Part shown: piece after piece, positions 6,742 to 24,509 of the stretch
How the letters are laid out: every line of letters begins with the position of its first letter
Numbering within the stretch: position 1 is the first letter of the stretch
Source: Candidatus Nomurabacteria bacterium
Lineage (GTDB): Bacteria; Patescibacteriota; Minisyncoccia; Phycocordibacterales; UBA9973
DNA length: 64,000 nucleotides
Reading direction: 5' to 3'
Assembly: GCA_026396065.1 (NCBI GenBank)
Contig: JAPLXO010000011.1
Coordinates: 10,748 to 74,747 of the forward strand
Position numbers and translations under genes: made by a program
Notes under the pieces: model-generated
Seen by the model: only the letters and a program-made list of their open reading frames with translations
What the model was told of the DNA's origin: nothing
Databases searched by the model: none

Positions 6742-8637
6742 ATGTCAAAAATAATAGGAATAGATTTGGGTACTACAAATAGTGCGGTTGCGATTATCGA
6801 AGGAGGACAACCAAAAATAATAGAAAATATCGAAGGAGCGAGAACAACTCCGAGTATTGTTTCTGTTGCAAAAAACGGAGATCGTCTCGTCGGCCTTCTT
6901 GCGAAGCGTCAGGCGGTGACGAATCCAGAAAATACCGTCTACGGTATCAAGCGTTTTATGGGTCACAATTTTGAAGATCCAGAAGTGCAAAAGGACTTGA
7001 AGAATGCTTCATTTAAATTGCAAAAAGGAAAAGACGGCGGAGTAGAAGTAATGATTGGCGACAAATGGATGCGCCCAGAAGAAATCTCTGCGATGATTTT
7101 AACTAAAATAAAAACAGACGTCGAAGCAAAGATCGGAGAAAAAATCACTGAAGCTGTTATTACAGTTCCAGCATATTTCAACGATGCACAAAGAAAAGCT
7201 ACAAAGGATGCAGGTATGATCGCAGGACTCGATGTAAAAAGAATCATCAACGAGCCGACAGCGGCAGCCCTCGCTTATGGTTTCAATAAAAAGAAAAATG
7301 AAAAGATCGTCGTGTATGACTTTGGAGGAGGAACTTTCGATGTATCAGTTCTCGAAATCGGTGACGATGTTATCGAAGTAAAATCAACAGATGGCGACAG
7401 TCACCTCGGAGGTCGTGATATAGATCACAAGATTATTGCTTGGATCGCAGAAGAATATAAAAAGACTTCTGGCGTAGATGTTCGTAACGACAAATTGGCC
7501 TTGCAACGCCTCGATGAAGCTGCTGAAAAGGCTAAAATCGAGCTTTCTACTGCTATTGAAAGTGAAATCAACATTCCTTTCATCACTTCTACTGCAGAAG
7601 GTCCACAGCACTTATTGCTCAAAATGACTCGTGCACAACTCGAATCAATTGCCGATGAATATATCACTCGTTCTATCGAAATCACAAAAAGAGCAATGAC
7701 TGCTTCTGGTTTCAAAATGGAAGACATGAATGAAATCATAATGGTCGGAGGACAAACAAGAATGCCAAAGATTGTCGAAGAAGTGAAAAAAGTTTTTGGA
7801 AAAATGCCAAACCTCTCTATCAATCCAGATGAAGTCGTCGCCCTCGGTGCTGCAGTGCAAGCCGGAGTATTGCAAGGTGATGTGCGTGATGTTTTACTCC
7901 TCGATGTTATTCCACTTTCACTAGGTATCGAGACACTCGGAGGTGTGGCTACAAAATTAGTCGAGAGAAATACTACTATTCCATCTAGTAAATCACAGAC
8001 ATTTTCTACGGCAGCTGACAATCAAACAAGTGTAGAAATTCACATCGTGCAGGGTGAGAGACCAATGGCTTCAGATAATAAAAGTTTAGGACGATTTATT
8101 TTGGACGGAATTCCACCAGCACCGCGTGGTATGCCACAAGTCGAAGTTTCTTTTGATGTTGATGCAAACGGAATTCTAAATGTCACTGCAAAAGATAAAG
8201 CTTCAGGTAAAACTCAAACAATTAAAATCGAAGCAAGTTCAGGATTGAAAGATGAAGACATAAAGAAGATGCAAGCTGATGCAGAAATGCATGCTGAAGA
8301 AGATGCAAAGAAAAAAGAATTGGCAGAAATTAAAAATTCTTGTGAAATGACTATTTACTCTGCAGAAAAAGCTTTGAAGGACAATGAAGCGAAAATTCCT
8401 GCAGATGTAAAAGATGGTGTGAATGCAAAAATTACAGCACTTCGCGGGTTGAAAGACGGTACAGATATGGAAGCTATCAAAAAAGCCCTCGAAGAACTTT
8501 CAGCCGAAATGTCCAAGATCGGTGAAGCTATGAGTAAAGCCGGCGAGCAAGCTCCAGCCGGAGGTGCACCCGAAGAACAAGCTACCGAAGTCAAGGGCGA
8601 AGAAGTAAAGCCAGAAGGTGAAGAGCCTAAAGCATAA
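6742..8637 (+). CDS. dnaK: Hsp70 chaperone DnaK
   Basis: [36 protein letters not shown]. Confidence 0.99.
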
Positions 8638-8644
8638 AAACTAA

Positions 8645-8675
8645 CAAAAAAAAGCTCAAAAGAGCTTTTTTTTGT
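8645..8675 (+). terminator. Terminator after dnaK
   Basis: caaaaaaaagctc-aaaa-gagcttttttttg. Confidence 0.8.
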
Positions 8676-8701
8676 TTTTAGTAACTGATATAATAAAACC
8701 T

Positions 8702-10978
8702 ATGGAAGATATTGTAATACCTGAAAATAAAGACATGACCTATCTTGGTCAGACTACTTTTCGTAACAAAAATGTTTTATTTGGAATAAAACGCAAAGAT
8801 CGTCGTCAGCACTGTTATTTGCTCGGAAAATCAGGTACTGGTAAATCTGCTCTCATGACAAATATGGTTTTGCAAAACATCATTAATGGTGATGGTGTTT
8901 GTGTTGTCGATCCACACGGAGAACTTGTAGAAAGTATTGTATCAGCTATTCCAGCTCATCGTTTAAAAGATGTTATTTATTTTAATCCTGCTGACACTGA
9001 TTATCATATTGGTTTTAACGTTTTAGAGTTATTAGATCCTCGTTACAAACATCTTGTCGCCTCAGGATTGATGGGAATTTTCACAAAAATTTGGGCGAAT
9101 GCATGGAGTGCTAGAATGGAATACATTTTAAATAATTGTATTTTGGCTTTACTCGATACACCAGGTACTACACTTCTTGGAATTCCTAGAATGCTCGTCG
9201 ACAAAGATTATCGTCAGAAAATAATTACAAATTTGAAAGATCCAGTCATTAAAGCTTTTTGGATTCATGAATATGAAGCTTGGCAAGATAAATTTCGAAA
9301 TGAAGCTATTGCTCCGATTCAAAATAAAGTCGGACAATTTCTTTCTACTTCCATTATTCGTAATGTCGTAGGGCAATCAAAAAGTACAATTGATCTTTTT
9401 CAAGTAATGAATGAAGGAAAGATTTTTTTGGTGAATGTTTCCAAGGGACGTATCGGTGAAGATAACTCTGCACTTCTCGGAGGTATGCTTATTACAAAAA
9501 TTCAGCTCGCTGCAATGGAGCGTGTGCGTATTCCAGAAGAAGAACGTAAAGACTTTTACCTGTATGTCGACGAATTCCAAAATTTCGTAACAGATGCTTT
9601 TGCTAGTATTCTTTCAGAAGCTCGTAAATATCGTTTAAATCTTACTATAGCTCACCAGTACACAGCTCAGCTTGTCACTGCCAATGGTTCCGCTGTGCGT
9701 GATGCTGTATTCGGCAACGTAGGGACTATGATTATTTTCCGTGTAGGTGCTGACGATGCTGAATTCTTAGAAAAAGAATTTGAACCAGAATTCATGGCTA
9801 CAGATATTGTGAACTTGCCAAACTATCGAATTTATTTAAAATTGATGATTGATGGTATTACGAGTAGACCTTTTTCTGCTAAGACACTTGCACCGATGAA
9901 TAAAAACAGTAAGGTAAATACTGAGGAAGAAGTGATAAAGTCTTCAAGAACTCTGTATGGAAGATCGAAAGAAGTCGTTGAATCAGAAATAAATTCTTGG
10001 AGTGGAATGTCTTTGGGAGACATAGTACCTCCAGGTGGCAATGCTGGTGCAGATGTAGAAAAATTCCCTGTAATTTGTTCAAATTGTATGAAAGAAACTA
10101 CCGTGCCATTCAAGCCAGAAGAAGGACGCGCTGTATATTGTAAAGAGTGTATTGCTAAAATGAAGACAGGCGAGTTGAAGCCTACAAAAGGATCAGCACG
10201 TCAAATAAAATACGATGAAGAAACATTTTTCAAACCTCTTGCCGATCTAGGTATTGAATTTACTTCAAAAGAAGCTCCACCAAAAGTAATACCAAAGCCA
10301 TACATGCCACCAGTATCAAAACCAGGAATTTTTGGGACTGTTAAAAAAGTCTTTCAAAATACTGTTGGAGCAAAACCTCCATCTCCAATTTCAAATATAC
10401 CAAAACCAATTTCTCCAATTACTACTACTAATGTTAATGTTCCAGTTCCACCAAAACCTCCTATAAATATTTTTAAACCACCAACTCCTTCTCTTAATAT
10501 TCCAACACCGGTAATACCAACACCTACTCCACCAGTTAAACCTATTATTTCTACTACTCCAATTGAGTCACAAAAACCTCAAACTGTAGTTGAAAAACCA
10601 AAAGAAAATACAGCACTTAAAGATTTGTTAAATAAAGCCTTGGCACCAAAGCCAATTACACCAGTAGTACCACCTATACAGCCAGTTGTTCCAGAAATAA
10701 AAAAAGTTGAACCAGAACCAATTTCTTTAGCTTCTTTAAAAAATCCAACAATTGCAACTCCTATTTCACAAAATAAAGATAGATCTGCGAGTGCTGAAAA
10801 TATGAATAAGTTAAAAGAATTTGTAGCAAAAATTGCAGAACCTCTTAAAGCAGAAGAAATAAAAAAAGAGGAACAAATTCCTACACAACCTCCAGTCACA
10901 CCTGCACCTACTCCGACGATACAAAAAACAACAAAAGAAGTTCCAGAAGATGTATTAAGGAAAATTTTAGAAGAATAA
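8702..10978 (+). CDS. VirD4/TraG/HerA-like P-loop ATPase with CxxC-x17-CxxC zinc domain and Pro-rich tail
   Basis: Walker A GKSGTGKS, DPHG, Walker B LYVDEFQNF, LSEARKY, AHQY; CSNC-x17-CKEC; about 250 aa Pro/Lys-rich C-terminus; start at ATG 8702 after TGA-TATAAT. Confidence 0.88.
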   Translation: MEDIVIPENKDMTYLGQTTFRNKNVLFGIKRKDRRQHCYLLGKSGTGKSALMTNMVLQNIINGDGVCVVDPHGELVESIVSAIPAHRLKDVIYFNPADTDYHIGFNVLELLDPRYKHLVASGLMGIFTKIWANAWSARMEYILNNCILALLDTPGTTLLGIPRMLVDKDYRQKIITNLKDPVIKAFWIHEYEAWQDKFRNEAIAPIQNKVGQFLSTSIIRNVVGQSKSTIDLFQVMNEGKIFLVNVSKGRIGEDNSALLGGMLITKIQLAAMERVRIPEEERKDFYLYVDEFQNFVTDAFASILSEARKYRLNLTIAHQYTAQLVTANGSAVRDAVFGNVGTMIIFRVGADDAEFLEKEFEPEFMATDIVNLPNYRIYLKLMIDGITSRPFSAKTLAPMNKNSKVNTEEEVIKSSRTLYGRSKEVVESEINSWSGMSLGDIVPPGGNAGADVEKFPVICSNCMKETTVPFKPEEGRAVYCKECIAKMKTGELKPTKGSARQIKYDEETFFKPLADLGIEFTSKEAPPKVIPKPYMPPVSKPGIFGTVKKVFQNTVGAKPPSPISNIPKPISPITTTNVNVPVPPKPPINIFKPPTPSLNIPTPVIPTPTPPVKPIISTTPIESQKPQTVVEKPKENTALKDLLNKALAPKPITPVVPPIQPVVPEIKKVEPEPISLASLKNPTIATPISQNKDRSASAENMNKLKEFVAKIAEPLKAEEIKKEEQIPTQPPVTPAPTPTIQKTTKEVPEDVLRKILEE

Positions 10979-11033
10979 TAAATTAAAGAATGTCGCGCTA
11001 AAAGGACTTACGCGACCTCATTTGCAAAATCAC

Positions 11034-11336
11034 ATGTTTTGGAATAAAAATACAAATATACATACAGAAAGTACAGAAGAATTTTTTGACGACGAAAGTT
11101 TTAAAGAAATAAAGATGACCTTTATTGGTCGCGTGGTTACTATTATTATTGCTTCACTTTCATTGATCGCCGCACTTGCTTGGGAGGAAACACTTCACGA
11201 TTTATTCAGAGAATTTTTCACTAGTAGTGAATCAATACAAGGTAAACTACTTTATGCAATATTGGTGACTCTGCTTACTGTCATTGTTTCTGTTTTCGTC
11301 GGCCGAAGATTCCTTAAAAAAGCACGAAGGAAATAA
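11034..11336 (+). CDS. Small 2-TM membrane protein (DUF5654-like)
   Basis: LSLIAALAWEE and YAILVTLLTV hydrophobic motifs. Confidence 0.65.
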   Translation: MFWNKNTNIHTESTEEFFDDESFKEIKMTFIGRVVTIIIASLSLIAALAWEETLHDLFREFFTSSESIQGKLLYAILVTLLTVIVSVFVGRRFLKKARRK

Positions 11337-11347
11337 ATACTTTTGCT

Positions 11348-11373
11348 GTATCAGTGTACTAGTACGATAGTAT
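11348..11373 (+). promoter_or_regulatory. Promoter of Cys-rich array with TrpR-operator-like box
   Basis: gtatcagtgtactagtac (14/18 to GTACTAGTTAACTAGTAC) directly before -10 TAGTAT, 7 nt from ATG. Confidence 0.5.
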
Positions 11374-11380
11374 AAAAAAT

Positions 11381-13135
11381 ATGAATCCAGAAATTAAAAA
11401 TTGTCAGAACTGTAAAAAAGAATTTACGATAGAAACGGAAGATTTTTCTTTTTATAAAAAAATGAAAGTTCCACCACCGACATTTTGTCCAGAGTGTAGA
11501 ATGCAAAGAAGATTGGCTTGGAGAAATGAGCGTGGACTATATCGTAGAAATAGTGATGTTCCAGGGAAAGAAAACGAACAGATAATTTCTACTTATCCAC
11601 CTACTATAAATGTAAAAGTATACGACAATGATTATTGGTGGAGTGATAATTGGGAACCTACTGATTATGCTATGGAGTATGATTTTTCACGACCTTTTTT
11701 TGAACAATTTCGGGAACTTTTGTCTAAAGTGCCATTAATAAGTTTTGCTGATAGTAAAGGAGTAAATAATCAATATTGTAATTATATTACTGAAGGTAAG
11801 AATTGTTATATGCTTTCTGCTGCATGGAGTTGTGAAGATTGTTTACTTGGAAATAGAAATTCTTTTTGCAAGGAAACTGTTGATTCTTATGTGTGTCATA
11901 AAACGGAATTTTCTTATGGAAATATTTATTGTGGAGAATCATATAAATTATTTTATAGTGAACATTCGTACAATTGTACTGATTCATATTTTCTTTACGA
12001 CTGCCGAAACTGTATTGATTGTTTTATGTGTTATGGTTTGAGAAATAAATCTTACTGTATTGAAAATGTTCAATACACACAAGAAGAATATAGAGAAAAA
12101 ATGAAAGATATAAATTTGGGTAATTATGAAACTGTTGAAAATAATAAAACTTATTTTAATAAATTTAAACAAAATGCAGTTCGTAAGTACGCCAATAATA
12201 CAAAATGTATAAATGTGACGGGAGATAATGTCGAAAATGCAAAAGATGCACAATATTGTTTTGATTTACCAGGAGGAATTGAAAATATTAAATACTGTAA
12301 TTGGGGTACGTATGGATTAAAAGATTCTTATGATACAGGGCCGGGGACAGGTGGTAAATCAGAAATGACCTATGAAGGAGTTAGTATTGGTGTAGCAAAT
12401 GCTAATTGTTCTTTTGGTGCAATTGTTTGGAATTCTAGTAATGTACAATATGCTTTTAATTGTTACTCTACGAATAATTGTTTTGGTGTCGTCAGTTTGA
12501 AAAGTAAATCTTACTGTATTTTAAATAAGCAGTATACCAAAGAAGAATATAATGAATTGCTACCGAAAGTCATTCAACATATGAATGATATGCCTTATGT
12601 AGATAAAAAAGGACGTGTGTATAAATATGGGGAGCTTTTTCCAATAGAACTTTCTCCTTATGCATACAATGGTGCAACGGTACAAGATTTTTTCCCTCTA
12701 GATAAAGCCACTGCAGTAGGAGAGGGTTTTAATTGGCAAGATGAAACGGAGAGGAATTATGAGGTTACTTTACCAGCCTCAAGTATTCCTTTAAATATTG
12801 AAGAAGTTAAAAATGATATACTGTCGCAAACTTTAGGTTGCATAAACGCTTCAGGAGATGTACAGGGTTGCACGAAGGCATTTAGGTTAGTTTCAAAAGA
12901 ATTAGATTTTTATAAAAGATTTAATATTCCTATTCCACATTTTTGTCCAAATTGTAGACACGCGGAGCGTGTCAGTAGACGCAACCCTATGAAACTTTGG
13001 CACAGACAATGCATGTGTGATAAAACAAATCATGGTCATGCAGCTAAGTGTGAAGTTGAATTTGAGACTGCATATGCTCCAGATAGACCAGAGATCGTCT
13101 ATTGTGAAAAGTGTTACCAACAGGAGATTTATTAG
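11381..13135 (+). CDS. Cys-rich zinc-ribbon repeat protein, paralog 1
   Basis: CQNC..FY...PPTFCPECR N-terminal ribbon; two CF.C..L.NK.YCI.N.QY..EEY blocks; C-terminal IVYCEKCYQQEIY. Confidence 0.9.
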   Translation: MNPEIKNCQNCKKEFTIETEDFSFYKKMKVPPPTFCPECRMQRRLAWRNERGLYRRNSDVPGKENEQIISTYPPTINVKVYDNDYWWSDNWEPTDYAMEYDFSRPFFEQFRELLSKVPLISFADSKGVNNQYCNYITEGKNCYMLSAAWSCEDCLLGNRNSFCKETVDSYVCHKTEFSYGNIYCGESYKLFYSEHSYNCTDSYFLYDCRNCIDCFMCYGLRNKSYCIENVQYTQEEYREKMKDINLGNYETVENNKTYFNKFKQNAVRKYANNTKCINVTGDNVENAKDAQYCFDLPGGIENIKYCNWGTYGLKDSYDTGPGTGGKSEMTYEGVSIGVANANCSFGAIVWNSSNVQYAFNCYSTNNCFGVVSLKSKSYCILNKQYTKEEYNELLPKVIQHMNDMPYVDKKGRVYKYGELFPIELSPYAYNGATVQDFFPLDKATAVGEGFNWQDETERNYEVTLPASSIPLNIEEVKNDILSQTLGCINASGDVQGCTKAFRLVSKELDFYKRFNIPIPHFCPNCRHAERVSRRNPMKLWHRQCMCDKTNHGHAAKCEVEFETAYAPDRPEIVYCEKCYQQEIY

Positions 13136-13137
13136 TT

Positions 13138-14886
13138 ATGGAATCAAAAACACCAAAATCAGACGTACTTATAGATGAAATCCTTGCAGGGCTTGTTCCA
13201 CATACACGTATATGTAAATGGAAAGGCGAGCATCAGCATTGTGAAGGCAAATTTGAAATTACGAATGAAGATATTTCGTTTCTTAAAATGCTTCGAGTTC
13301 CTGCTCCAAATTTCTGTCCTACTTGTAGAAGAATTAAAAGACAATCTTTTATGGGTTTCGCGCAACTTTTTAAGAGGAAATGTGATGTAGTTGGACACGA
13401 TGAATCTATCATCTCTGTTTTTTCTAAAGAATGCCCTTTCCCAGTTGTTGATTATAAGTATTTTGCTTCTGATGAATTTGATTCTTTTTTATATCGTAAA
13501 AATTATGAAGAGAATACAAGTCCAATGGAACAACTTTTTTCTCTAAGGAAAATTTTTCCAATGCCTTCATTTTTAAATCGTGATTCTTCGAGTATAAATA
13601 GTGATTATTCAAATGGAGGTAGAGATAATAAAAACTGTTATTACACTAGTGGTTGCTATACGGTAGAAAATGCTTGGTATTCAAATATGCTCGTGAAGAG
13701 CAAAGAAATAATGGATTGCCGAACTGTAAAACATTCAGATCATGTATATTCGAGTCTTTATTCAGACCATCTATATAAATCTTATTTTACTTATTTTTCC
13801 AATAGCTGTACAGATAGTATGTTTCTTTTTGATTGTAGAAATTGTATAAACTGTTTTGGTTGTGTAAATTTGCGTAATGCTAAATATTGTATTTGGAATG
13901 AACAATATAGTAAAGAAGATTATGAACAATTTATAAAATCAAATCTACCATTCTCTAGAGATTTTTTAGAAGAAAATAAGCAAAAATTTTGGCAACTTGT
14001 AAAATCACTTCCAATAAATGCTTCTAGAAATATGACTGTAAAAAACAATGTAAATGGTGTGATGAATGTGAATTCGAATAATTTATATGATGTCACAGAA
14101 TCTAGTAAAGCAGAAAATGTACGTCATGCAGATGGCGCTCTTACACATCAAAATTCTATGGATTTACTATACTCGGGCGGATCTAGTTTGCTTTACGGTA
14201 CTATAAATATCGGTTCTCAATCGAGCAACGTTCGATTTTCAGTTTCATGTAAATTTTCTACTAACTCAGAATTTATTTTTAATTCAAATAATCTAGATAA
14301 TTGTTTTATGTGTTTTGGTTTGCAGCATAAATCTTATTGTATTTTAAACAAACAATATAGCCCAGATGAATATTTTAAAATAATAGATGAAATAAAATCT
14401 GACATGATAAAAAGGGGAGAATACGACGACGGACTAAGTTTTGAATTTTCTGCCCAAGCATATAATTTTTCATTAGCCCAGATTTCTTTTCCTCTTACAG
14501 AACAAGAAATAATAAAATTAGGTGGTTATATGGCTGAAGAGCCAGAAAGTAATGCCGGAGATATGAAAATTTTATCAAAAGAAGAAGTGCCACAAACAAT
14601 AGATGAAGTATCAGATGACATTGTAGATTATGCAATTAAATGTGAGGTTACTGCTAGGCCTTTCAGGATTACTCCTTCAGAATTACAATTTTATAGAATA
14701 ATGAAATTACCACTTCCTACTATACATCCGATAGTCAGAATGAGAAAATATTATGAACTGGCACCAATCGGTAAAAGCTACCCTGCTGTTTGTTCTAAAT
14801 GTGGTAAATCATTTCGATCATTATTTGATCCTAAAGACGGTTATAAGCTATACTGTGAAGATTGTTATAAACAAGAAGTATATTAA
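13138..14886 (+). CDS. Cys-rich zinc-ribbon repeat protein, paralog 2
   Basis: Same architecture; ATG 2 nt after previous stop; ends CSKC-x17-CEDCYKQEVY. Confidence 0.88.
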   Translation: MESKTPKSDVLIDEILAGLVPHTRICKWKGEHQHCEGKFEITNEDISFLKMLRVPAPNFCPTCRRIKRQSFMGFAQLFKRKCDVVGHDESIISVFSKECPFPVVDYKYFASDEFDSFLYRKNYEENTSPMEQLFSLRKIFPMPSFLNRDSSSINSDYSNGGRDNKNCYYTSGCYTVENAWYSNMLVKSKEIMDCRTVKHSDHVYSSLYSDHLYKSYFTYFSNSCTDSMFLFDCRNCINCFGCVNLRNAKYCIWNEQYSKEDYEQFIKSNLPFSRDFLEENKQKFWQLVKSLPINASRNMTVKNNVNGVMNVNSNNLYDVTESSKAENVRHADGALTHQNSMDLLYSGGSSLLYGTINIGSQSSNVRFSVSCKFSTNSEFIFNSNNLDNCFMCFGLQHKSYCILNKQYSPDEYFKIIDEIKSDMIKRGEYDDGLSFEFSAQAYNFSLAQISFPLTEQEIIKLGGYMAEEPESNAGDMKILSKEEVPQTIDEVSDDIVDYAIKCEVTARPFRITPSELQFYRIMKLPLPTIHPIVRMRKYYELAPIGKSYPAVCSKCGKSFRSLFDPKDGYKLYCEDCYKQEVY

Positions 14887-14915
14887 TTATGGAAACAAAA
14901 AACTGTCAAAATTGT

Positions 14916-14968
14916 CCCGATTTTTTAAAAATCGAGGATCCACGATTCTAATGAATTATAATCGGGAT
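14916..14968. repeat. 53-nt palindromic insertion element (CCCGA..TCGAGGATCCACGA..TCGGGA)
   Basis: Interrupts ancestral-looking start ...AATTGT|AAAAAAGAT; second copy 22001-22053; related inverted copy in aspS. Confidence 0.7.
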
Positions 14969-14977
14969 AAAAAAGAT

Positions 14978-16684
14978 ATGGAACATCAATCAGAAAGTAA
15001 AATATGTCAGAATTGTAAGACTTCGTTTATTATAAAAGAAGAAGATTTTAATTTTTATGAAAAAATCAAAGTTCCTCCACCGACATTTTGCCCGGAGTGT
15101 AGAAACATACAACGTTTTGCTACTAGAAATTCAAAATCTTTATATAAACGTGCTTGTGATGGCTGTAAAAAAGAAGTTATATCACGATTTTCACCGCATA
15201 ATCCAGCAGTTATGTATTGCCGAGATTGTTGGTGGAGTGATAATTGGGACGCACTTTCTTTTGCAAAAGATTACGATTTTTCTAAAACTTTTTTTGAACA
15301 ATTTAAAGAACTTCTTTTCTCTGTACCACATGTATCACTTTTAAATAATAATATGCATGAAAGTGATTACTCAAACATGGAATCAGATGATAAAAGATGC
15401 TATCTAACCTTTGGAGGACATTATAATGAAGATTGTGCTTTTACTGAATATAGTCTTTGGGGACGTGAAGTATATGATTCTTATTGGTCATTAAAATCGG
15501 AACAATGTCATGGATGTTCTCTTGTTGAGCGTTGCTATCGCACTTATGGATCTGAACAATGTTATGACTGTCTCGATACACTTTTTTCTTTTGATTGTAC
15601 AAATTGTTCAAATATTATTGGTTGTATAGGGTTGAGAAATAAATCATATTGTATTTTTAATCAACAGTATTCTAAAGAAGAATTTTTTGAAATTAAAGAA
15701 AATTTAAATATTGGTTCATATAGAGCTCGAAAAGAACTAGAAGAGAAATCAAAAACATTTTGGCTTAGTTTCCCACATAAAGAGAGTTTGATAACTCATT
15801 CAAATGATTGTACTGGAAATAGTATAGTTAATTCAAAAAACTCAAAAAACATTTGGCAGGCAGATAGTGTTGAGGATTCCAAATATAGTTATATCGCAGC
15901 TTGGAATAAAAACTGTTATGACGAAACATCGGCTGGTAATGACGAGCTTTGTTATCTGTGCGCAAATGGTGGTGGTTTATATAATTCTATCGCTATATTA
16001 TATTCTTTTGGTTCAAATGTAGATAAGAAAAAACAAAGTTTTAATTGTGGTTATTCTTATACTGTTCTCAACTGCACTGATTGTTTTGGTTGTGTAGGAA
16101 TTCGTAATAAACAATATTGTATTTTGAACAAACAATATACCAAAGAAGAGTATTTTGAACTTTTAGAAAAAATTAAAAAAAGTATGTTGGAAAATCCTTT
16201 CCAATCACAAAAGACAGGACAAGTATTTAGCTATGGGGATTTCTTTCCATCAGAGCATTCACTTTTTGCTTACAATGAGACAGTAGCACAAGATTTATAT
16301 CCAAAAGATAAAGATTCTGCAGAGGCTCAAGGTTTTGTTTGGCGAGAAGAACCTGAACCACACTACGACTTTAATCATTATCAAATTCCTGATGATATAA
16401 AAGACGTAGATGATTCTATTTTGTCTCAAGTGTTAAAATGTGAAGAAAGTGGTAAGGGTTATAAAATAGCTCGATCTGAGTTAGCATTTTATCAAAAAAT
16501 GCAGATTCCAATACCTCGTATTTCGCCACTTATACGTATTCGAGACCGTGTACGTGCATTGTTACCATTTAAACTTTTTGATAGGCAATGTCAGAAATGT
16601 AATAAGGATATAAAAACTCCTTATTCTCCAGAACGCCCAGAAATTATCTACTGTGAAAAGTGTTACCAGCAGGAAGTATATTAA
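14978..16684 (+). CDS. Cys-rich zinc-ribbon repeat protein, paralog 3
   Basis: MEHQSESKICQNC...; CDGC-x17-CRDC and CQKC-x17-CEKC; ends QQEVY. Confidence 0.88.
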   Translation: MEHQSESKICQNCKTSFIIKEEDFNFYEKIKVPPPTFCPECRNIQRFATRNSKSLYKRACDGCKKEVISRFSPHNPAVMYCRDCWWSDNWDALSFAKDYDFSKTFFEQFKELLFSVPHVSLLNNNMHESDYSNMESDDKRCYLTFGGHYNEDCAFTEYSLWGREVYDSYWSLKSEQCHGCSLVERCYRTYGSEQCYDCLDTLFSFDCTNCSNIIGCIGLRNKSYCIFNQQYSKEEFFEIKENLNIGSYRARKELEEKSKTFWLSFPHKESLITHSNDCTGNSIVNSKNSKNIWQADSVEDSKYSYIAAWNKNCYDETSAGNDELCYLCANGGGLYNSIAILYSFGSNVDKKKQSFNCGYSYTVLNCTDCFGCVGIRNKQYCILNKQYTKEEYFELLEKIKKSMLENPFQSQKTGQVFSYGDFFPSEHSLFAYNETVAQDLYPKDKDSAEAQGFVWREEPEPHYDFNHYQIPDDIKDVDDSILSQVLKCEESGKGYKIARSELAFYQKMQIPIPRISPLIRIRDRVRALLPFKLFDRQCQKCNKDIKTPYSPERPEIIYCEKCYQQEVY

Positions 16685-16686
16685 TT

Positions 16687-18459
16687 ATGGAAACACGAAA
16701 TTGTCAAAATTGTAAAAAAGATTTCACTATAGAGGTGGAGGATTTTAATTTTTATCAAAAGATAAAAGTTCCACCACCGACGTGGTGCCCAGAGTGTCGA
16801 CTTATTCGTCGTCTTGCTTATCGTGAAGAACGGTCTTTTTATAAAGATGAATGTGATAAATGCGGTCATGAAATAGTAAGTTTATTTGCACCAGAATCTG
16901 ATCTTCCTGTCTTTTGTTCTCCTTGTTGGTGGAGTGATAGTTGGGATGCTACATCTTATGGAAAAGACTACGATTTTTCTCGTCCATTTTTTGAGCAATT
17001 ATATCAATTAATGAAAGTCGTACCAAATCAGGCTACAAATACACGAAATTGTACTGATTGTAAATATTCTCATGGCAATATACGTTGTAAAAATTGTACT
17101 TTTGTTTTTGCTGGTATACAGTCTATTAATTGCTATTATTGTTCAACACCGATTTTCACAAAAGATTCTTTTGATTCAAGCTTTATTATAAATGCTGATC
17201 ATGTATATGAAGGTGTACATATAGGGGGAATATATAATTCAAAATTTATTTATTTTTCTGATGAATGCTTGGACTGTTCTTTTATTTTTAATTGTGTTGG
17301 ATGTTCAGATTGTTTTGGTTGTGTAAATTTAAGAAATCAAAAATATTGTATTTTTAATATTCAATATTCTAAAGAAGAATATAAAAAAGAAATTTTAAAA
17401 TGGGATCTAGGTAGTTATGAAAATTTACAAAAAGCACGAGAACTTTTTATGAAACTTTACCATAAAACACCAAGACGTTTTGCATTAATTTCAAATTCTA
17501 CAAATTGTATTGGTGATGATATTCAAAATACTAAAAATTGTAAAATATGTTTTTCTGCTACTCATGGAGTAGAAAATTCTAAATTTATTTTTCAATGTGG
17601 ATTATTGTTGAAAGATAGTTATGATGTGACACTAGGCGGAGATACTTCTGAGCTTGCATATGAAGTAAATGGTAGCACTCAATCACAAAAAAGTTTTTTT
17701 TGTAGGGGTAGTAATAACTTAAGAGATGTTGAATATTCAGATAATATATACAATGGATCCAATCTTTTTGGTTGCGTAAAATTGAGACATAAAAAATATT
17801 GTATTTTAAATAAACAATATACAAAAGAAGAATATGAAGATTTAATACCAAAAATAAAACAGCATATGATAGATATGCCATATGTTGATAAAAAAGGACG
17901 AGTCTATAAATATGGGGAATTTTTTCCAGTAGAAATAGCTTTATTTGCTTACAATGAAACCTGGGCACATCAATATTTTCCTATTACAAAAGAAAAAGCA
18001 ATAGAACAAGGTTACAATTGGCGTGATCCGATAGAAAGGGATTATAAAATAACTATTAACATTGGGAATTTGCATAATCATATTAAAGATGTGACTGATT
18101 CTATTTTAGATGAAGTGATAGAATGTGAACATAATGGAAAAAACTGTAATCAACAGTGCACTACTGCTTTTAGAATTTTACCAAATGAATTGGGTTTTTA
18201 TAGACAAATGAATTTGGCTTTGCCTAGAATATGCCCAAACTGTCGTCATTATGAAAGATTAAAAAAAACAAATCCACCAAAATTATGGCATGGAAAATGT
18301 ATGTGCGATGGTGTAGAATCAAGTAATAAAGAATATAGAAATACTATTAAGCATTTGCATGGAGAGGAGCCTTGCCAAAATGAATTTGAAACTTCTATAA
18401 GTAGTGAAAGAAAAGAAATAGTTTATTGTGAAAAATGTTATCAGGATGAATTTATATGA
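16687..18459 (+). CDS. Cys-rich zinc-ribbon repeat protein, paralog 4
   Basis: METRNCQNC..., same architecture; ends YCEKCYQDEFI. Confidence 0.9.
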   Translation: METRNCQNCKKDFTIEVEDFNFYQKIKVPPPTWCPECRLIRRLAYREERSFYKDECDKCGHEIVSLFAPESDLPVFCSPCWWSDSWDATSYGKDYDFSRPFFEQLYQLMKVVPNQATNTRNCTDCKYSHGNIRCKNCTFVFAGIQSINCYYCSTPIFTKDSFDSSFIINADHVYEGVHIGGIYNSKFIYFSDECLDCSFIFNCVGCSDCFGCVNLRNQKYCIFNIQYSKEEYKKEILKWDLGSYENLQKARELFMKLYHKTPRRFALISNSTNCIGDDIQNTKNCKICFSATHGVENSKFIFQCGLLLKDSYDVTLGGDTSELAYEVNGSTQSQKSFFCRGSNNLRDVEYSDNIYNGSNLFGCVKLRHKKYCILNKQYTKEEYEDLIPKIKQHMIDMPYVDKKGRVYKYGEFFPVEIALFAYNETWAHQYFPITKEKAIEQGYNWRDPIERDYKITINIGNLHNHIKDVTDSILDEVIECEHNGKNCNQQCTTAFRILPNELGFYRQMNLALPRICPNCRHYERLKKTNPPKLWHGKCMCDGVESSNKEYRNTIKHLHGEEPCQNEFETSISSERKEIVYCEKCYQDEFI

Positions 18460-18563
18460 ATAAAAAAACAAAATTAAAAATAGAATCTTTAAAATATTTA
18501 ATTCCAATCTTGTTAAAAACAATTAAATTTCGAATTAAAGTTTGGCGACGTAAAAACTTTTAA
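18456..18563 (+). CDS. Possible 35 aa cationic peptide
   Basis: ATGA overlap with paralog 4 stop; MNKKTKLKIESLKYLIPILLKTIKFRIKVWRRKNF* fills the gap to paralog 5. Confidence 0.3.
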   Translation: MNKKTKLKIESLKYLIPILLKTIKFRIKVWRRKNF

Positions 18564-18572
18564 ATAAGATAT

Positions 18573-20315
18573 ATGGAAACACGAAACTGTCAAAATTGTA
18601 AAAAAGATTTCACTATAGAGGTGGAGGATTTTAATTTTTATCAAAAGATAAAAGTTCCAGCGCCGACTTTTTGCCCAGATTGTAGAACAATACGTAGACT
18701 ATGTTGGAGAAATGAAATGTCTCTTTTTAAGAGAAAATGTGATGCTCCTGGACATGAAGAAATGCTCATTACATGTTTTCCTCCAGAAGAAAAACTCACT
18801 GTATATGATTCTACATCTTGGTGGGGTGATTCTTGGGATGCAATACAATATGGAAAAGAATATGATTTTTCCAAATCATTCTTTGAACAGTGGAGAGATT
18901 TAAGAAATAGTATTCCACTTCAGGCACTTTCAAACATAAAAGCGACTAACAGTGATTATTGTAATGTGGCAGAGGGCAGTAAAGATAGCTATATGTGTTC
19001 GGGTACTTGGAAAATAGAAAGAACTCTTTACTCTAATAGAGTTTCAGAAACAAAAGATTCCTCCGACTTGTATATAGTGTATCGTTCTGAGCTTTGTTAT
19101 GAAGATGTAATATGTTCTGATTGTTACCATTTAATGTACTCTTTAGATTGTAAAAGTTGTGTTGACTCATTTTTTCTCTATGATTGTGTGGGTTGCACAG
19201 ACTGTTTTGGTTGTAGTAATTTACGCAATAAATCATATTGCATGTGGAACGAGCAATTGTCTAGAGAAGAATATTTTCGTCATTTAGCAGAATATAATTT
19301 AAAAAATCATGAGACTATATCGATTTTAAAAAATAAATTTAAAGAAATTTGTTTGCAATCTTTACATCGTTTTTCACTTCAAATAAAATCAGTAAATTCT
19401 ACTGGTGACAATTTAGAAGGTACAAAAAATTGCAAAGTGTGTTTTGATGTTTCTGGAAAAATGGAAGATTTGAAATATGTGCATTGGACAGCTATTAGTG
19501 CAAAAGACGCTTATGATTCTGGCCCTGGTATTGGACAAGTTGAACTTGCATATGAATCCTTTGACACTGGAATAGGTAATTTCCGTAGTCTTTTTACGAG
19601 TGTTGTATATAGTTGTAACGATGTTGAATATTCATTTAATTGTCATGGTTCTTCGAATTTATTTGGTTGTATTGGAATTAGAAATAAAAAATACTGTATT
19701 TTAAATAAAGAATATACAAAAGGGGAATATGAAATATTATTGCCAAAAATTAAAGAGCAAATGATGCAAGTTCCATATATAGATAAAAAAGGAATTAATT
19801 ATAGATACGGTGAATTTTTTCCAGCAGAACTTTCTACTTTTTGTTATAACGAAACACAAGCACAAGATTATTTTCCAATAGATAAGGAATATGCATCTAA
19901 AATGGGATATCGTTGGCGTGATAAAAAGATAAGTGAATATCACATCACTATTGAATCAAAAGATCTTCCAGATTCTCTTGATGACGTTACAGATTCAATC
20001 ACTAATGAAATTATTGGATGTGAAAATAAAGATAAGATGAGTAATTATTGTAGAGGAGCATATAAAATAACTATCGATGAGCTGAATTTATATCGCAAGC
20101 TTGGAGTACCATTACCAAGACTTTGTTTTCTTTGTCGGCATGAAACTAGATTAAAAATGCGTAATCCAATGAAGCTTTGGAATAGACAGTGTATGTGTGA
20201 AAAAGAAAATCATCAACATAGTGGTAAATGTGAAATTACATTTGAAACATCATACGATCCTAATAGACCAGAAATAGTATATTGTGAAAAATGCTATCAA
20301 GCCGAGGTTTATTAG
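18573..20315 (+). CDS. Cys-rich zinc-ribbon repeat protein, paralog 5
   Basis: METRNCQNC..., ends YCEKCYQAEVY. Confidence 0.9.
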   Translation: METRNCQNCKKDFTIEVEDFNFYQKIKVPAPTFCPDCRTIRRLCWRNEMSLFKRKCDAPGHEEMLITCFPPEEKLTVYDSTSWWGDSWDAIQYGKEYDFSKSFFEQWRDLRNSIPLQALSNIKATNSDYCNVAEGSKDSYMCSGTWKIERTLYSNRVSETKDSSDLYIVYRSELCYEDVICSDCYHLMYSLDCKSCVDSFFLYDCVGCTDCFGCSNLRNKSYCMWNEQLSREEYFRHLAEYNLKNHETISILKNKFKEICLQSLHRFSLQIKSVNSTGDNLEGTKNCKVCFDVSGKMEDLKYVHWTAISAKDAYDSGPGIGQVELAYESFDTGIGNFRSLFTSVVYSCNDVEYSFNCHGSSNLFGCIGIRNKKYCILNKEYTKGEYEILLPKIKEQMMQVPYIDKKGINYRYGEFFPAELSTFCYNETQAQDYFPIDKEYASKMGYRWRDKKISEYHITIESKDLPDSLDDVTDSITNEIIGCENKDKMSNYCRGAYKITIDELNLYRKLGVPLPRLCFLCRHETRLKMRNPMKLWNRQCMCEKENHQHSGKCEITFETSYDPNRPEIVYCEKCYQAEVY

Positions 20316-20350
20316 AATGAAGTCCATGATAAGGGGTTTGGGTTGTATTT

Positions 20351-20424
20351 CTCCCTCTCCTTGATAAGGAGAGGCCGTCTACAGGTGTCCATCAACTACC
20401 GGTGGACTTTGGGTGAGGTGAATT
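20351..20424 (+). repeat. REP-like element with nested hairpin insertion
   Basis: ctccctctccttgataaggagagg [~33 nt insert] tttgggtgaggtgaatt; uninterrupted copy at 23776. Confidence 0.7.
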
Positions 20425-20447
20425 ATATGCTAAAATAATAATACATT

Positions 20448-21920
20448 ATGGGAAAGCCGAATCGAGTTCAGATAATCAAATATGGTCCACCACCACCAGA
20501 GCTTCCGGTGTTTGGAAAGGTGCCTCCTGAAGAGGTTTCTTTTATTGGACGTACGAATTACGTCGCAGCACTTGAAGAAAAGAAATTTATTTTCGGAATT
20601 AAGCGCGTTGACCGCCGAAGACATTTATATATCATTGGAAAGTCTGGGGTTGGAAAAACAAAGCTTCTAGAATTGATGCTTCGCCAAGATGTGACATATG
20701 GCCACGGTCTTTGTCTTATCGATCCACACGGTGACGTTATCGATGCAATGCTCGATTATATTCCAAAAGAGCGTGTTGAAGACGTTTGTATTATTGACCC
20801 TGCTGATATTGATTTCCCAGCATCTTTCAATCCTTTGGCAAATGTCGACCCAATGTTCAAATTTCAATTGACTCAAGGGTTAATCGAAGTTTTCCAAAAA
20901 CAATTCGGTGCAAACTGGACACCACGTCTCGAGCACGTTTTTCGTTTTACTTGTCTCGCATTACTCGATTATCCGTATGCTACGATGCGCGGAATGATCT
21001 CGATGTTGACAGATAGAAATTATCGTCAGAAAGTCGTGGAATATATTACAGACGACATGGTGAAAAGATTCTTCGCTATCGAATTCGCGGACTGGTCTGA
21101 AAAATTCGATACTGACGCTATTATTCCACTTGTTAATAAACTAGGTCAATTTCTTTCTGATCCCTTGCTTCGTAATATTTTCGGACAGAAGCAAAATAAA
21201 ATAGATATTAGTAAATTGATGAATGAACAAAAAATAATTTTTATTAATTTGTCTAAAGGGCGCCTCGGTGAAGAAAATTCGTCTTTCCTTGGTTCGATGT
21301 TTTTGACTAAAATTAAACAGGCCGGAATGGAGCGCGCTAGTATTGCCGAACGTGACCGTAAAGATTTTTATATTTATGTGGACGAGTTCCAAAACGTAGT
21401 GACACAAACTTTCGAAAACATTTTGTCGGAAGCTCGAAAATACGGTTTGAACCTTACTATGGCTCATCAGTATGTCGGTCAAATTATTCCAAAAGTTCAC
21501 CAAGCTGTACTTGGTAATACAGGTAGTGTCATTTGTTTTCGTGTAGGTGGAGAAGATGCTGTAAAATTGAAACCCGAATTTGAGCCATTATTCGGAGTGA
21601 AAGACATGATCAACCTCGCCGTAGCAGAATTTTATATCAAAATGACGATTGATGGAGAGTCTTACGATCCATTTTCTGCAGAGACACTTCGTGTATTACC
21701 TCCAAATCATCCTTCATATCGACAAGAAATTATAAATGCATCACGTAGAAAATATTCAATTCCAAAAGACGATGCGCAAAAATTGATTCAAGAGGAAGAA
21801 GCTACAATTATTCGAAGTGCAGAAGAAAAAGCTATTATTTCAGGAAAAGGCAAAAATGAAGTTGACGAAAATGAAAAGTCTGCAAAACCAGTCGCTAAAG
21901 AAGCTGAACCTATGATATAA
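20448..21920 (+). CDS. Second VirD4/TraG/HerA-like P-loop ATPase
   Basis: GKSGVGKT, DPHGD, IYVDEFQN, LSEARKYG, AHQY; paralog of 8702-10978 without the tail. Confidence 0.88.
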   Translation: MGKPNRVQIIKYGPPPPELPVFGKVPPEEVSFIGRTNYVAALEEKKFIFGIKRVDRRRHLYIIGKSGVGKTKLLELMLRQDVTYGHGLCLIDPHGDVIDAMLDYIPKERVEDVCIIDPADIDFPASFNPLANVDPMFKFQLTQGLIEVFQKQFGANWTPRLEHVFRFTCLALLDYPYATMRGMISMLTDRNYRQKVVEYITDDMVKRFFAIEFADWSEKFDTDAIIPLVNKLGQFLSDPLLRNIFGQKQNKIDISKLMNEQKIIFINLSKGRLGEENSSFLGSMFLTKIKQAGMERASIAERDRKDFYIYVDEFQNVVTQTFENILSEARKYGLNLTMAHQYVGQIIPKVHQAVLGNTGSVICFRVGGEDAVKLKPEFEPLFGVKDMINLAVAEFYIKMTIDGESYDPFSAETLRVLPPNHPSYRQEIINASRRKYSIPKDDAQKLIQEEEATIIRSAEEKAIISGKGKNEVDENEKSAKPVAKEAEPMI

Positions 21921-22000
21921 ATTAAACAACATACTGACAAACTCCAGTATGTAAGGATGTTAAATTTATGAATTCTGAAACAAAAAATTGCCAAAATTGT

Positions 22001-22053
22001 CCCGATTTTTAAAAAATCGAGGATCCACGATTCTAATGAATTATAATCGGGAT
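22001..22053. repeat. Second copy of 53-nt palindromic insertion element
   Basis: One substitution relative to 14916-14968. Confidence 0.7.
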
Positions 22054-22062
22054 AAAAAAGAT

Positions 22063-23775
22063 ATGGAACATCAATCAGAAAGTAAAATATGTCAGAATTG
22101 TAAGACTTCGTTTATTATAGAACAAGAAGATTTTAATTTTTATGAAAAGATGAAAGTTCCTGCACCGACATGGTGTCCTGAATGTCGAATGGCACGTAGA
22201 TTCCTATTTATGAATACTTGGAATCTATATAGGCGAAATTGTGAAAAATGTGGGGAAAGTACACTTTCAATGTTTTCAGAAGATAAACCACATAAGGTTT
22301 TTTGTTTACCTTGTTGGTGGTCGGATGATTGGGATGGTACTGAGTATGCTATCAATTACGACCCCTCTCGTTCTTTTTTAGAACAGATGAAAGAGCTGGA
22401 ACTCAGAACACCTTGGATGGCTAATACTATGATGTATACAATGAATGTAAATAGCCCGTATTGTAATGCTACTGGTCCAGTAAAGAATTGCTACATGCTT
22501 TTTTGGGCAGATTATTGTGAAAATTCTTTTTACTCATCTTATTTGAATACTTTAAAAGATTCTATAGATTGTTATCGGGTAGCTCATAGTGAATTGTGCT
22601 ATGAAGGCACTGGTTTGAATAAATGTTACAGAACTTTCTTTTCGGAAGAGTGTGATTCTTGTACCGATACGTGGTTTTCAAGAGCTTGTTCTGGTTTAGT
22701 AAATTGTTTTGGTTGTATAAATTTAAGAAATAAAAATTATTGTATATTCAATGAACAATATTCTCAGGAAGATTATTTTAAAAAAGTAAAAGAATTTGAT
22801 CTAATATCTCATACGTCATTAGAAAAAATAAAAAAAGATGTTTTAGTGTTTTGGAGTAAATATCCAAGGCGATTTTATAACGGTAATGCGTTAAACAAAA
22901 ACGTTAGTGGTGATTATATTTATGAATCTAAAAATGCACAGAATTGTTTTATGGTTTCTGGGGCTGAAGATTGTAAATTTACTCAATTTGTAAGTATTCC
23001 AAAAGCCAAAGATTGTTATGATAATACTGGTTGGGGAGATGGTTCAGAAAGAATTTATGAGTCTACTGTTGTCGGCCTCGGAGCAAGTAATGTAAAATTT
23101 TCTAATGAATGCTGGCCTAATGCAATGAATACAGAATACTCTATCTATGCTATAGGTGGATGTAAGGATATTTTTGGATGTGTCAATTTAAAGAAAAAAC
23201 AATATTGTATTTTAAATAAACAGTATTCAAAGGAAGAATATGAAAAGTTAAAAGAAAAAATTATTAAAGATATGAATATAAATACTTTTATAGACTCAAA
23301 AAATAGAGTTTATAAATATGGTGATTCATTACCTATTGAATTGTCGCCATTTTCTTACAATGAATCAAATGCTGGTAAGTTTTTACCAATTACAAAAGAA
23401 AAAGCTTTAGAGCAAGGTTTCACTTGGTCAGAAGGAAAGGTGAATGAATATAAGATTACAGCCAAGGCGTCTGATTTACCAGATACAATCTCATATACTA
23501 CAGATGAGATACTAAACGACGTGTTTGAATGTGCTTCTTGTCAAAGAGCTTATAAATTTACTCTAGGTGAATTGAATTTAATGAGAAGACTTTCTTTACC
23601 ATTACCACATAAATGTTTTCATTGTCGTCAAGAATTTCGTTTTTCTAGATCTAATCAGGCTAGATTATACGATAGAAATTACATGAAATGCGGAGTAGAT
23701 TTAAAAACTTCTTATAATCCAGATAACACAGAAATAGTTTATTGTGAAAAATGCTATCAGCAGGAAGTATATTAG
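22063..23775 (+). CDS. Cys-rich zinc-ribbon repeat protein, paralog 6
   Basis: MEHQSESKICQNC...; CEKC-x17-CLPC; ends YCEKCYQQEVY. Confidence 0.88.
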   Translation: MEHQSESKICQNCKTSFIIEQEDFNFYEKMKVPAPTWCPECRMARRFLFMNTWNLYRRNCEKCGESTLSMFSEDKPHKVFCLPCWWSDDWDGTEYAINYDPSRSFLEQMKELELRTPWMANTMMYTMNVNSPYCNATGPVKNCYMLFWADYCENSFYSSYLNTLKDSIDCYRVAHSELCYEGTGLNKCYRTFFSEECDSCTDTWFSRACSGLVNCFGCINLRNKNYCIFNEQYSQEDYFKKVKEFDLISHTSLEKIKKDVLVFWSKYPRRFYNGNALNKNVSGDYIYESKNAQNCFMVSGAEDCKFTQFVSIPKAKDCYDNTGWGDGSERIYESTVVGLGASNVKFSNECWPNAMNTEYSIYAIGGCKDIFGCVNLKKKQYCILNKQYSKEEYEKLKEKIIKDMNINTFIDSKNRVYKYGDSLPIELSPFSYNESNAGKFLPITKEKALEQGFTWSEGKVNEYKITAKASDLPDTISYTTDEILNDVFECASCQRAYKFTLGELNLMRRLSLPLPHKCFHCRQEFRFSRSNQARLYDRNYMKCGVDLKTSYNPDNTEIVYCEKCYQQEVY

Positions 23776-23817
23776 CTCCCTCTCCTTAATAAGGAGAGGG
23801 TTGGGGTGAGGTGAATT
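23776..23817 (+). repeat. REP-like element
   Basis: ctccctctcctt-aat-aaggagaggg-ttggggtgaggtgaatt immediately after stop of paralog 6. Confidence 0.75.
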
Positions 23818-23855: not shown

Positions 23856-24509
23856 ATGAGTAAAGATTACTATGAAGTTTTGGGAGTTAATAAAAGTGCT
23901 ACAAAAGACGAATTGAAAACGGCTTTTCGTAAGCTTGCGCACAAACATCATCCAGACAAGAATAAAGGGGATGATAAAAAATTTAAAGAAATAAATGAAG
24001 CGTATCAAACACTTTCAGATGACACAAAGCGTGCACAATACGATAGATTTGGTGCAGGTTATCAAAATATGGGTGGCGGACATCAACATGGTGGATTTTC
24101 TGGTGGAGGTTTTGAAGGATTTGACTTTTCTGGTTTTCAGCAAGGTGGACAAGAATTTGATTTTGGAAACTTGAATGATATATTTTCAGATTTTTTTACA
24201 GGAGGCAGAGGTGGTTTTCACACCAGAACTCCTCGTGGCCGAGACATGCAAACAGAAATTGAAATTTCTTTTATAGATGCTATTTTAGGTGTTGAAAAAA
24301 ATATTGTTATTACTGGGCATAAAGAAATAAAAATAAGTATTCCGTCTGGTATACGTGATGGCCAAACTTTAAAAATGACAGGAATGGGTGAAGTTATAAA
24401 AGATGGAAAAGCAGGAGATTTATATATAAATGTTCATGTTAAAGTTCCACACAAGATATCTAAAAAAGCTCGCGAACTTCTTGAAGAATTAAAAAAAGAG
24501 GGAATTTAG
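23856..24509 (+). CDS. dnaJ: Short DnaJ-family co-chaperone (J domain, G/F region, reduced CTD, no zinc finger)
   Basis: [12 protein letters not shown] motif, [25 protein letters not shown]; no CxxCxGxG repeats. Confidence 0.88.

Follow-up and report, generated by a model that had tools for sequence, protein, structure and literature searches.

Patescibacteria have an essential type IV secretion system (T4SS) and thousands of orphan coupling-protein homologues, and the text passages available from two studies describe the transported substrates as unknown (PMC12102498; PMC12857230). One of these, in the same passages, counts 5,713 orphan VirD4-type homologues in 2,918 Patescibacteria genomes, 148 of them near virB4, and leaves their function open (PMC12102498). 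The C-terminal tails of coupling proteins recruit auxiliary proteins, as described for TrwB-TrwA, the DotL complex and TraD-TraM in the accessible part of PMC12857230. Here we describe a locus in a 64,000-nucleotide stretch (the window) of contig JAPLXO010000011.1 from a Candidatus Nomurabacteria bacterium (assembly GCA_026396065.1), in which two VirD4-like ATPases, A and B, stand among six Cys-rich paralogs whose bodies are predicted solenoids capped by zinc fingers. The source bacterium is an ultra-small symbiont. ATPase B and this Cys-rich family form a module that recurs across the phylum, joined in Paceibacteria by ATPase A and a separately encoded membrane half; the DnaK and DnaJ genes around the locus are lineage-specific neighbours.

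The family was found in 17 of 301 Patescibacteria genomes across 11 GTDB families, with named loci in Staskawiczbacteria, Giovannonibacteria, Peribacteria and Abawacabacteria and a protein from Gracilibacteria. The B-clade ATPase likewise occurs in 17 of the 301, and 16 genomes carry both, the exceptions being G321 (250 contigs, with a partial ATPase match only) and G294. The 16 best rows of the ATPase B search came from 15 family-positive genomes and one family-less congener, and the 17th genome with B, G171, has a truncated copy. All these B proteins fall into one 32-row clade of a tree of 77 ATPase domains (SH-aLRT, the Shimodaira-Hasegawa approximate likelihood-ratio test, 100), apart from A and A-like proteins. 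Within one taxonomic family (f27), B and the Cys-rich family are each found in three of seven genomes and are jointly present or absent. In distant lineages 10 of 14 genomes have a family copy no more than 5 kb from B, against 2 of 37 for other ATPase paralogs, and the linkage persists where B orthologues share only about 50% identity and none of the other neighbours is the same. The smallest arrangement is a one-contig genome with just two family copies, both flanking B (G217:C1:74,545-80,144). A sequence-only reading of the window had tied the family to VirD4-like ATPases, and such a link holds statistically, for the B clade phylum-wide and for the A and B pair in Paceibacteria.

The same reading had made DnaK and DnaJ part of the system, and here the comparison went the other way. 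Among 15 distant genomes a family copy lay within 5 kb of dnaK in one and within 10 kb in three, and Staskawiczbacteria-type loci hold the module free of chaperone genes. Seven of 23 selected mapped loci combine the membrane half, A and/or B and family genes without chaperones; in L205 and L211 the order is membrane half, A with finger, four or five family genes, then B. As distant genomes seldom have dnaK near the family and a hairpin follows dnaK in the window, we take the module to consist of B and the family. Congeners share a fixed backbone, grpE-paaX-dnaK-A-B-dnaJ, any slot of which may be occupied by family genes, in variable number: where A and B could be viewed on a single stretch (12 congeners), copies lie between the two in seven and not in five. 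The genome encodes three VirD4-like ATPases of this type. In 77 loci around family genes, many of them short or from Nomurabacteria, B was found in 23, A in 19, C in 3, dnaK in 13 and dnaJ in 14 within up to 10 kb.

Both ATPases score over the cut-offs of PF10412, PF02534 and PF12696, and the alignment of B proteins contains invariant GKSGxGK and YVDEF motifs (Walker A and B). ATPase A matches the Pfam models TrwB_AAD_bind (49.5 bits) and zf_Tbcl_2 (48.9 bits), its finger exceeding the cut-offs of PF23477 (48.9/27) and TIGR04272 (52.7/36). Maximum hydropathy is 1.13 in A, 1.0 in B and 0.56-1.35 in 13 long B forms, so that no transmembrane (TM) anchor is present on the same chain, and A and B stay below the full-length equivalog cut-offs of NF045973 (52.8 of 250) and TIGR03743 (53 of 366). 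By homology A and B would work in the manner of coupling proteins, but because they have no such anchor and fall short of the equivalog scores, we file them as VirD4-like and not as canonical. Distant B forms carry an extra soluble N-terminal domain of 280 residues; its homologue in this genome is encoded on its own, by a gene for 418 aa with a single hydrophobic segment (C3:122222-123478). This stand-alone N-terminal half has no Pfam match, and a cluster of three family copies is about 5 kb away. At the other end of B, a variable linker leads to an acidic-hydrophobic tail of the E-x-P-hydrophobic-hydrophobic type in 30 of 30 aligned B proteins; it recurs in 22 of 23 further loci, the remaining one being cut by the locus end. 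A sequence search of the Protein Data Bank (PDB) with the B alignment gave no match at E up to 0.001, and a single B reached TrwB at E 0.054. In PADLOC both ATPases match mad8/HerA models (E 1e-13 to 1e-15), in a generic manner only; neither the two paralogs tested nor the membrane protein matched, and no complete known anti-phage system was reported. ATPase A of the genus carries the CxxC-x17-CxxC finger of the family, a finger missing from nine A-like proteins of family-negative relatives; it is still no marker of the module, because five distant A-like proteins from family-negative genomes possess it. The window contains no VirB4 gene, in line with the sequence-only reading, which had noted no VirB genes there; a VirB4 over cut-off is nevertheless encoded on contig C4 of the same genome, unlinked to the module.

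The genome of 800 kb holds 16 full-length family copies, spread over 4 contigs; the family takes up 3.5% of the genome. The six-gene array described from the window is therefore real without being the whole family, a seventh copy lying in the window itself. A search with paralog 5 matched 18 of 18 congeners, with 1-26 matches each (one of these, G018, proved to hold a 27-codon remnant only), and none of 12 genomes from other families of the same order. A profile search returned 2,557 clusters (50% identity) at E up to 1e-30, a search for shorter homologues gave mostly contig-end fragments, and viral contigs yielded one partial match only. As had been expected for other genomes of the candidate phyla radiation, every returned homologue was named "hypothetical protein". 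The GenBank label "CaiB/BaiF family protein", which we had presumed such proteins to bear, appeared neither among the returned names nor in the literature searched. In four distant arrays (L104, L106, L186 and L195) a divergent gene of about 250-270 aa, resembling a winged-helix regulator, recurs among the family genes, and similar open reading frames (ORFs) flank the contig C4 copy in this genome; the recurring gene may be TrmB-like.

The common plan claimed for the paralogs was recovered by internal alignment, in which residues 1-115 of paralog 5 align with its C-terminal module (E 1e-11) and the repeat blocks with each other (E 4e-12). A hydropathy scan confirmed that the paralogs are free of signal peptides and TM segments, and no TM segment was found in the paralogs or in ATPases A and B (maximum 19-residue hydropathy 0.8-1.3). 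An AlphaFold model of paralog 5 from 150 sequences has a predicted local distance difference test score (pLDDT) of 93.6 and a predicted template-modelling score of 0.91, and consists of short-stranded solenoids at about residues 120-225 and 265-375, helical linkers and a zinc-finger pair at each end. In a first model, from 7 sequences, the solenoids were weak (pLDDT 70.7). The anticipated architecture of beta-solenoids with zinc ribbons is thus borne out as a prediction. Conservation along the alignment shows an autocorrelation of 0.40 at lag 12 in the first solenoid and of 0.23 and 0.35 at lags 12 and 13 in the second, a period shared with the 12-residue Cys-ladder coil of beetle antifreeze-type beta-helices. 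With neither model did Foldseek find a PDB match at E up to 0.001, and ESM Atlas matches were to unnamed clusters only. The best VIA-align Z was 5.7, to generic beta-helices, and with the terminal modules barely compared on their own a new fold is not proven. In the paralogs, Pfam and NCBIfam recognise treble-clef fingers at the ends and nothing else, and the solenoid body matched no Pfam, NCBIfam or PADLOC family. On PF23477/TIGR04272, paralog 2 scores over the cut-off (28.1/27) and the other five below; paralogs 1, 2 and 5 have a third finger that is missing some Cys, and the final finger, at the C-terminus, is similar to LIM interaction fingers (E 3e-4). Conservation falls on Cys, on aromatic residues and on Arg and Lys of the frame in the two symmetric ends, among them the symmetric Arg clusters R38/R42 and R522/R526, and no evident catalytic residue set is found among the conserved positions of the family alignment. 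The extreme C-terminus is strongly conserved (YCExCYxxEVY-type). A regular Thr-x-Thr face is the ice-binding feature of beetle antifreeze-type beta-helices, and no regular Thr-x-Thr array occurs in the family alignments. Genomes G057 and G148 have what look like split forms beside ATPase B (L100:10919-13861 and L101:3407-4149): one gene for a double zinc finger alone (88-144 aa) and another for a solenoid alone (about 320 aa).

The six paralogs are 31-46% identical to one another, and in a tree they represent different subtypes, five of which have close orthologues in congeners. That variation is concentrated in the repeat blocks, as first noticed, is clear from the mean identity among the six (42-48% in the zinc-finger ends, 31-33% in the solenoid blocks) and from 107 orthologues of paralog 5, in which 47 sites reach a conservation of at least 90% but stay under 40% across the family. 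The solenoids, with 210 of 580 residues, hold 39 of these 47 subtype-fixed sites. The description "hypervariable" and the suggestion of positive selection did not survive a comparison of 16 orthologue pairs (68-79% identical). The proportion of nonsynonymous differences (pN, 0.13-0.21) was far below that of synonymous differences (pS, 0.56-0.98) in 16 of 16 pairs, indicating purifying selection. The ratio of nonsynonymous to synonymous rates (dN/dS) was 0.07-0.21 over the whole gene in the five pairs where it was computable and 0.07-0.24 in the solenoids where computable, never above 1; synonymous sites are near saturation, and single sites may therefore have been under episodic selection. The solenoid differences thus appear to be old, stabilised specificities rather than hypervariable loops.

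The order of genes from dnaK to dnaJ (dnaK, ATPase A, a DUF5654 gene, paralogs 1-5, ATPase B, paralog 6, dnaJ) and their common orientation were as first described, by ORF coordinates and Pfam (Table 1). The stop-start gaps of 2 nucleotides (nt) reported for paralogs 1-4 are found between paralogs 1 and 2 and between 3 and 4 (stop-TT-ATG), and not between paralogs 2 and 3. There, the ATG at 14889 starts a stub of 20 codons in a different frame, and a palindromic element that the sequence-only reading had missed comes next; paralog 6 is arranged alike.

Table 1. Features of the locus and its surroundings; positions refer to the window unless a contig is named.
Feature	Position	Strand	Remarks
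dnaK	6742..8637	+	ORF list; neighbour outside the module; part of genus backbone
Terminator-like hairpin, dnaK / ATPase A spacer	8643..8676	.	z -4.88, 0/200 shuffles
ATPase A	8702..10978	+	Soluble VirD4/TrwB-like nucleoside triphosphatase (NTPase) domain, aa ~10-440; CxxC-x17-CxxC zinc finger 454-488; Pro-rich tail
DUF5654 small membrane protein	11034..11336	+	Pfam; passenger
Cys-rich solenoid paralog 1	11381..13135	+	584 aa
Paralog 2	13138..14886	+	582 aa; most divergent subtype (tree)
Stub ORF, original 5' end of paralog 3	14889..14951	+	Cut by insertion; out of frame with paralog 3
Twin-hairpin palindromic element before paralog 3	14915..14967	.	Without GIY-YIG gene
Paralog 3	14978..16684	+	568 aa from element-supplied start; alternative ATG 14951
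Paralog 4	16687..18459	+	590 aa; first ~90 nt almost the same as paralog 5
Paralog 5	18573..20315	+	580 aa; member modelled by AlphaFold; >100 orthologues at 57-80%
Second palindromic repeat, copy before ATPase B	20355..20373	.	15 exact-pattern copies in genome
ATPase B	20448..21920	+	Soluble VirD4-like NTPase; clade co-occurring with Cys-rich family; conserved C-terminal tail
Stub ORF 21968-22012 and palindromic element 22000-22052, ahead of paralog 6	21968..22052	+	
Paralog 6	22063..23775	+	570 aa; 93% identity with paralog 3 over 213 nt around start
Second palindromic repeat, copy after paralog 6	23780..23798	.	
dnaJ, short form without zinc-finger region	23856..24509	+	217 aa; neighbour
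Seventh family member	55934..57691	+	Between D-Ala-D-Ala carboxypeptidase-like gene and mraY-like gene
Element copies outside window	C3:131841-132083; C6:20446-20721		First hairpin encloses GIY-YIG gene

Four of the 16 family copies begin with this sequence of stub, twin hairpin and new start; the DNA is identical over ten codons there, while the bodies are only about 40% alike. The enclosed GIY-YIG gene of the two copies outside the window encodes 80 aa and matches PF01541 with 56.9 and 57.6 bits; it is absent from both copies in the window, and 3 of 5 known element copies are without the nuclease. In G007 the orthologue of paralog 3 (79% identical) is free of the element and truly begins with the stub sequence, and on this ground we regard the element as an insertion that repairs its target. 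A metagenomic contig (L295) shows a like arrangement of stub, hairpin and start. The element was not seen in the family loci of relatives, and a 15-nt element pattern in metagenomes was mostly chance, with a family gene at 1 of 119 loci. Paralogs 3 and 6, and likewise 4 and 5, are 80-100% identical over their first 60-90 coding bases, which points to 5'-end conversion. From these comparisons we infer that a GIY-YIG element homes into the 5' ends of the family. The second palindrome, similar to repetitive extragenic palindromic (REP) sequences, has a conserved G-rich motif downstream.

Among the neighbouring genes, DUF5654 was considered as a component of the module and rejected, its position not being conserved in relatives; no match to it was found in the genus loci or in the 77 loci around family genes. 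A sigma-70 promoter scan of the locus gave the chance level (79 vs 81). A PaaX-like regulator gene (5836-6342, minus strand) is divergent from dnaK and kept in the genus, and may regulate the chaperone locus. The short dnaJ is common to G006, G007 and G011, and in most congeners the protein is about 360 aa. Further along the window, a 2083-aa protein with SpvB, TcdB mid, FG-GAP and RHS repeats (28363-34614) is followed after 2 nt by an ORF of 148 aa (34617-35063), and the two resemble an RHS polymorphic toxin and a candidate immunity gene.

We tentatively favour a reading, quite possible without yet being probable, in which the family members are interchangeable cytoplasmic adaptors of motor B, the zinc-finger frame docking and the subtype-specific solenoids choosing the cargo. 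The membrane half, A and B would assemble a split type IV coupling complex, in which the B tail (or an all-alpha domain) would bind the Arg-rich zinc-finger ends of family members. Each subtype would bind a different cargo and pass it to the chromosomal VirB4 secretion system of epibiotic life. Copies would spread by local duplication and 5'-end recombination, and the differing repertoires of genomes (0-26 copies) would result from this. The observed linkage, co-distribution, tail and selection pattern and the predicted fold are consistent with this reading, from which docking and cargo choice would follow. Several points weigh against it. In distant genomes 40 of 112 family copies lie within 30 kb of B, and the other 72 lie farther away or on other contigs; in this genome 10 of 16 copies are away from A and B, either over 30 kb from B or on a contig other than its own. 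The genomes are related and not independent, so that Fisher p values for adjacency overstate, and the ATPase tree was made by a quick method from the best 30 ATPase B matches in the 301 genomes and the loci in hand. ATPase B is kept at about 90% identity in G294, which has no family gene, and in G018 with its remnant. VirB4 occurs in 27 of 27 other genomes tested and does not discriminate, because family-negative genomes have it too, and no VirB gene adjoins the module in mapped loci. Finally, one VirD4 homologue is non-essential in a Saccharibacterium in which other T4SS genes are essential, as stated in the available passages of PMC12102498.

The linkage data would serve equally well if the family members were themselves the cargo, that is, effectors recognised by B through the invariant C-terminal finger and EVY-type end, unfolded and fed to the T4SS, their solenoids binding host targets. 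The conserved C-terminus, the absence of a signal peptide or TM segment and a repertoire as large and variable as effector arrays would fit, but rigid multi-zinc proteins homologous over their whole length carry no toxin or enzyme domain, purifying selection leaves no arms-race signal and the conserved B tail suggests a stable partner, so that we consider this unlikely, if a serious contender. We doubt more strongly that the module works apart from secretion, as an intracellular sensor in which solenoids detect macromolecules that are foreign or damaged, such as phage proteins or nucleic acid, and activate a HerA/FtsK-type ATPase B. Neither a family match in PADLOC nor a consistently adjoining nuclease or other effector gene was found, the genes stand among core housekeeping genes rather than in defence islands, and ATPase B is 84-93% conserved within the genus; the patchy presence and variable repertoires are nonetheless typical of defence systems, and the mad8/HerA matches, the long B forms without TM segments and the distance from virB genes suit a sensor. 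It is improbable that there is no partnership at all, and that a self-amplifying family moved horizontally together with the ATPase gene beside it, near which its copies go on inserting. Such hitchhiking would explain why copies occupy any intergenic slot, differ between congeners and are missing between A and B in five of the 12, and 5'-end gene conversion and the GIY-YIG element do act on the family. However, the frames are intact under purifying selection, the linkage outlasts the divergence of B and a full turnover of neighbours, joint presence and absence is near-exact, including in f27, and the element, in four of 16 copies here, was unseen in relatives' loci, with one partial viral-contig match to the family. 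Least probable, and by far, is that DnaK and DnaJ handle the family as parts of the system: the genus module lies in the grpE-dnaK-dnaJ region, copies also flank grpE and dnaJ, and a few distant genomes have a copy near dnaK, yet other Paceibacteria and all distant classes hold B and the family elsewhere. On these locations and the terminator hairpin after dnaK we reject the chaperones as module components.

Earlier publications cover the VirD4-type motor and its orphan state. The B clade and the palindromic element appear undescribed in the literature searched, and so does the Cys-rich family that is the partner of B; the available passages of bioRxiv 10.1101/335083 and PMC12455944 contain nothing on this family, although supplements might hold it as an unnamed cluster. 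One clade of orphan motors gains candidates for its partner family and its docking tail, together with a minimal locus of two copies, and with these the transport question becomes directly testable. The family is large and occupies a sizeable part of this reduced genome, returned only hypothetical annotations and gives a confident model without a PDB match. There is a reasonable possibility, held with reserve, that the motor and up to 26 zinc-capped solenoids represent a T4SS substrate-selection stage or its first identified cargo family, a host-range "toolkit" with a new fold, remodelled at the 5' end by a homing element.

Compared with known systems, the terminal modules of the family and the finger of ATPase A match the treble-clef fingers PF13451, PF23477 and TIGR04272, of which two Methanosarcina members (M. 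mazei homologues) bind zinc by inductively coupled plasma mass spectrometry, according to the available passages of PMC12704099. Unlike those fingers alone, the family protein extends well beyond them, the finger models covering less than 15% of it. Its 12-13 residue periodicity is that of small beta-solenoids, and there is a weak structural likeness, over 81-110 residues, to beetle antifreeze protein 1EZG (Z 3.9), ryegrass ice-binding protein 3ULT (4.8) and phi29 gp12 3GQ7 (5.7). With 4-7% identity and Z below 8, these denote a common arrangement only, and the 1EZG comparison, on the whole-chain model, has a root mean square deviation of 8.1 over 81 aligned residues. Unlike small beta-solenoids, the family proteins are probably cytoplasmic and are predicted to be capped by zinc fingers and to have two solenoids per chain. 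Against the general background of free-standing GIY-YIG homing endonucleases and REP-like palindromes, the inserted element is alike in its nuclease within a palindrome, fixed target and co-converted flanks; it differs in being aimed at a multigene family, inserting at the conserved 5' end of its members and supplying them with a new start, and in that most of its known copies are without the nuclease. ATPases A and B are orphan VirD4-type homologues of the kind described for Patescibacteria, far from virB4, and to judge by the text passages of that account (its supplements may differ), the B clade, the split membrane half, the tail and the linked family are resolved only here (PMC12102498). 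As in TrwB-TrwA, TraD-TraM, DotL-IcmSW and Cag-beta-CagF, a VirD4-like motor has a C-terminal tail proposed to recruit substrate-selecting partners, but A and B have no TM anchor and no relaxase or virB neighbours (passages of PMC12857230). Where the coupling complexes covered in those passages have one or a few auxiliary proteins, motor B would be served by up to 26 paralogous partners of unrelated fold, homologous over their whole length.

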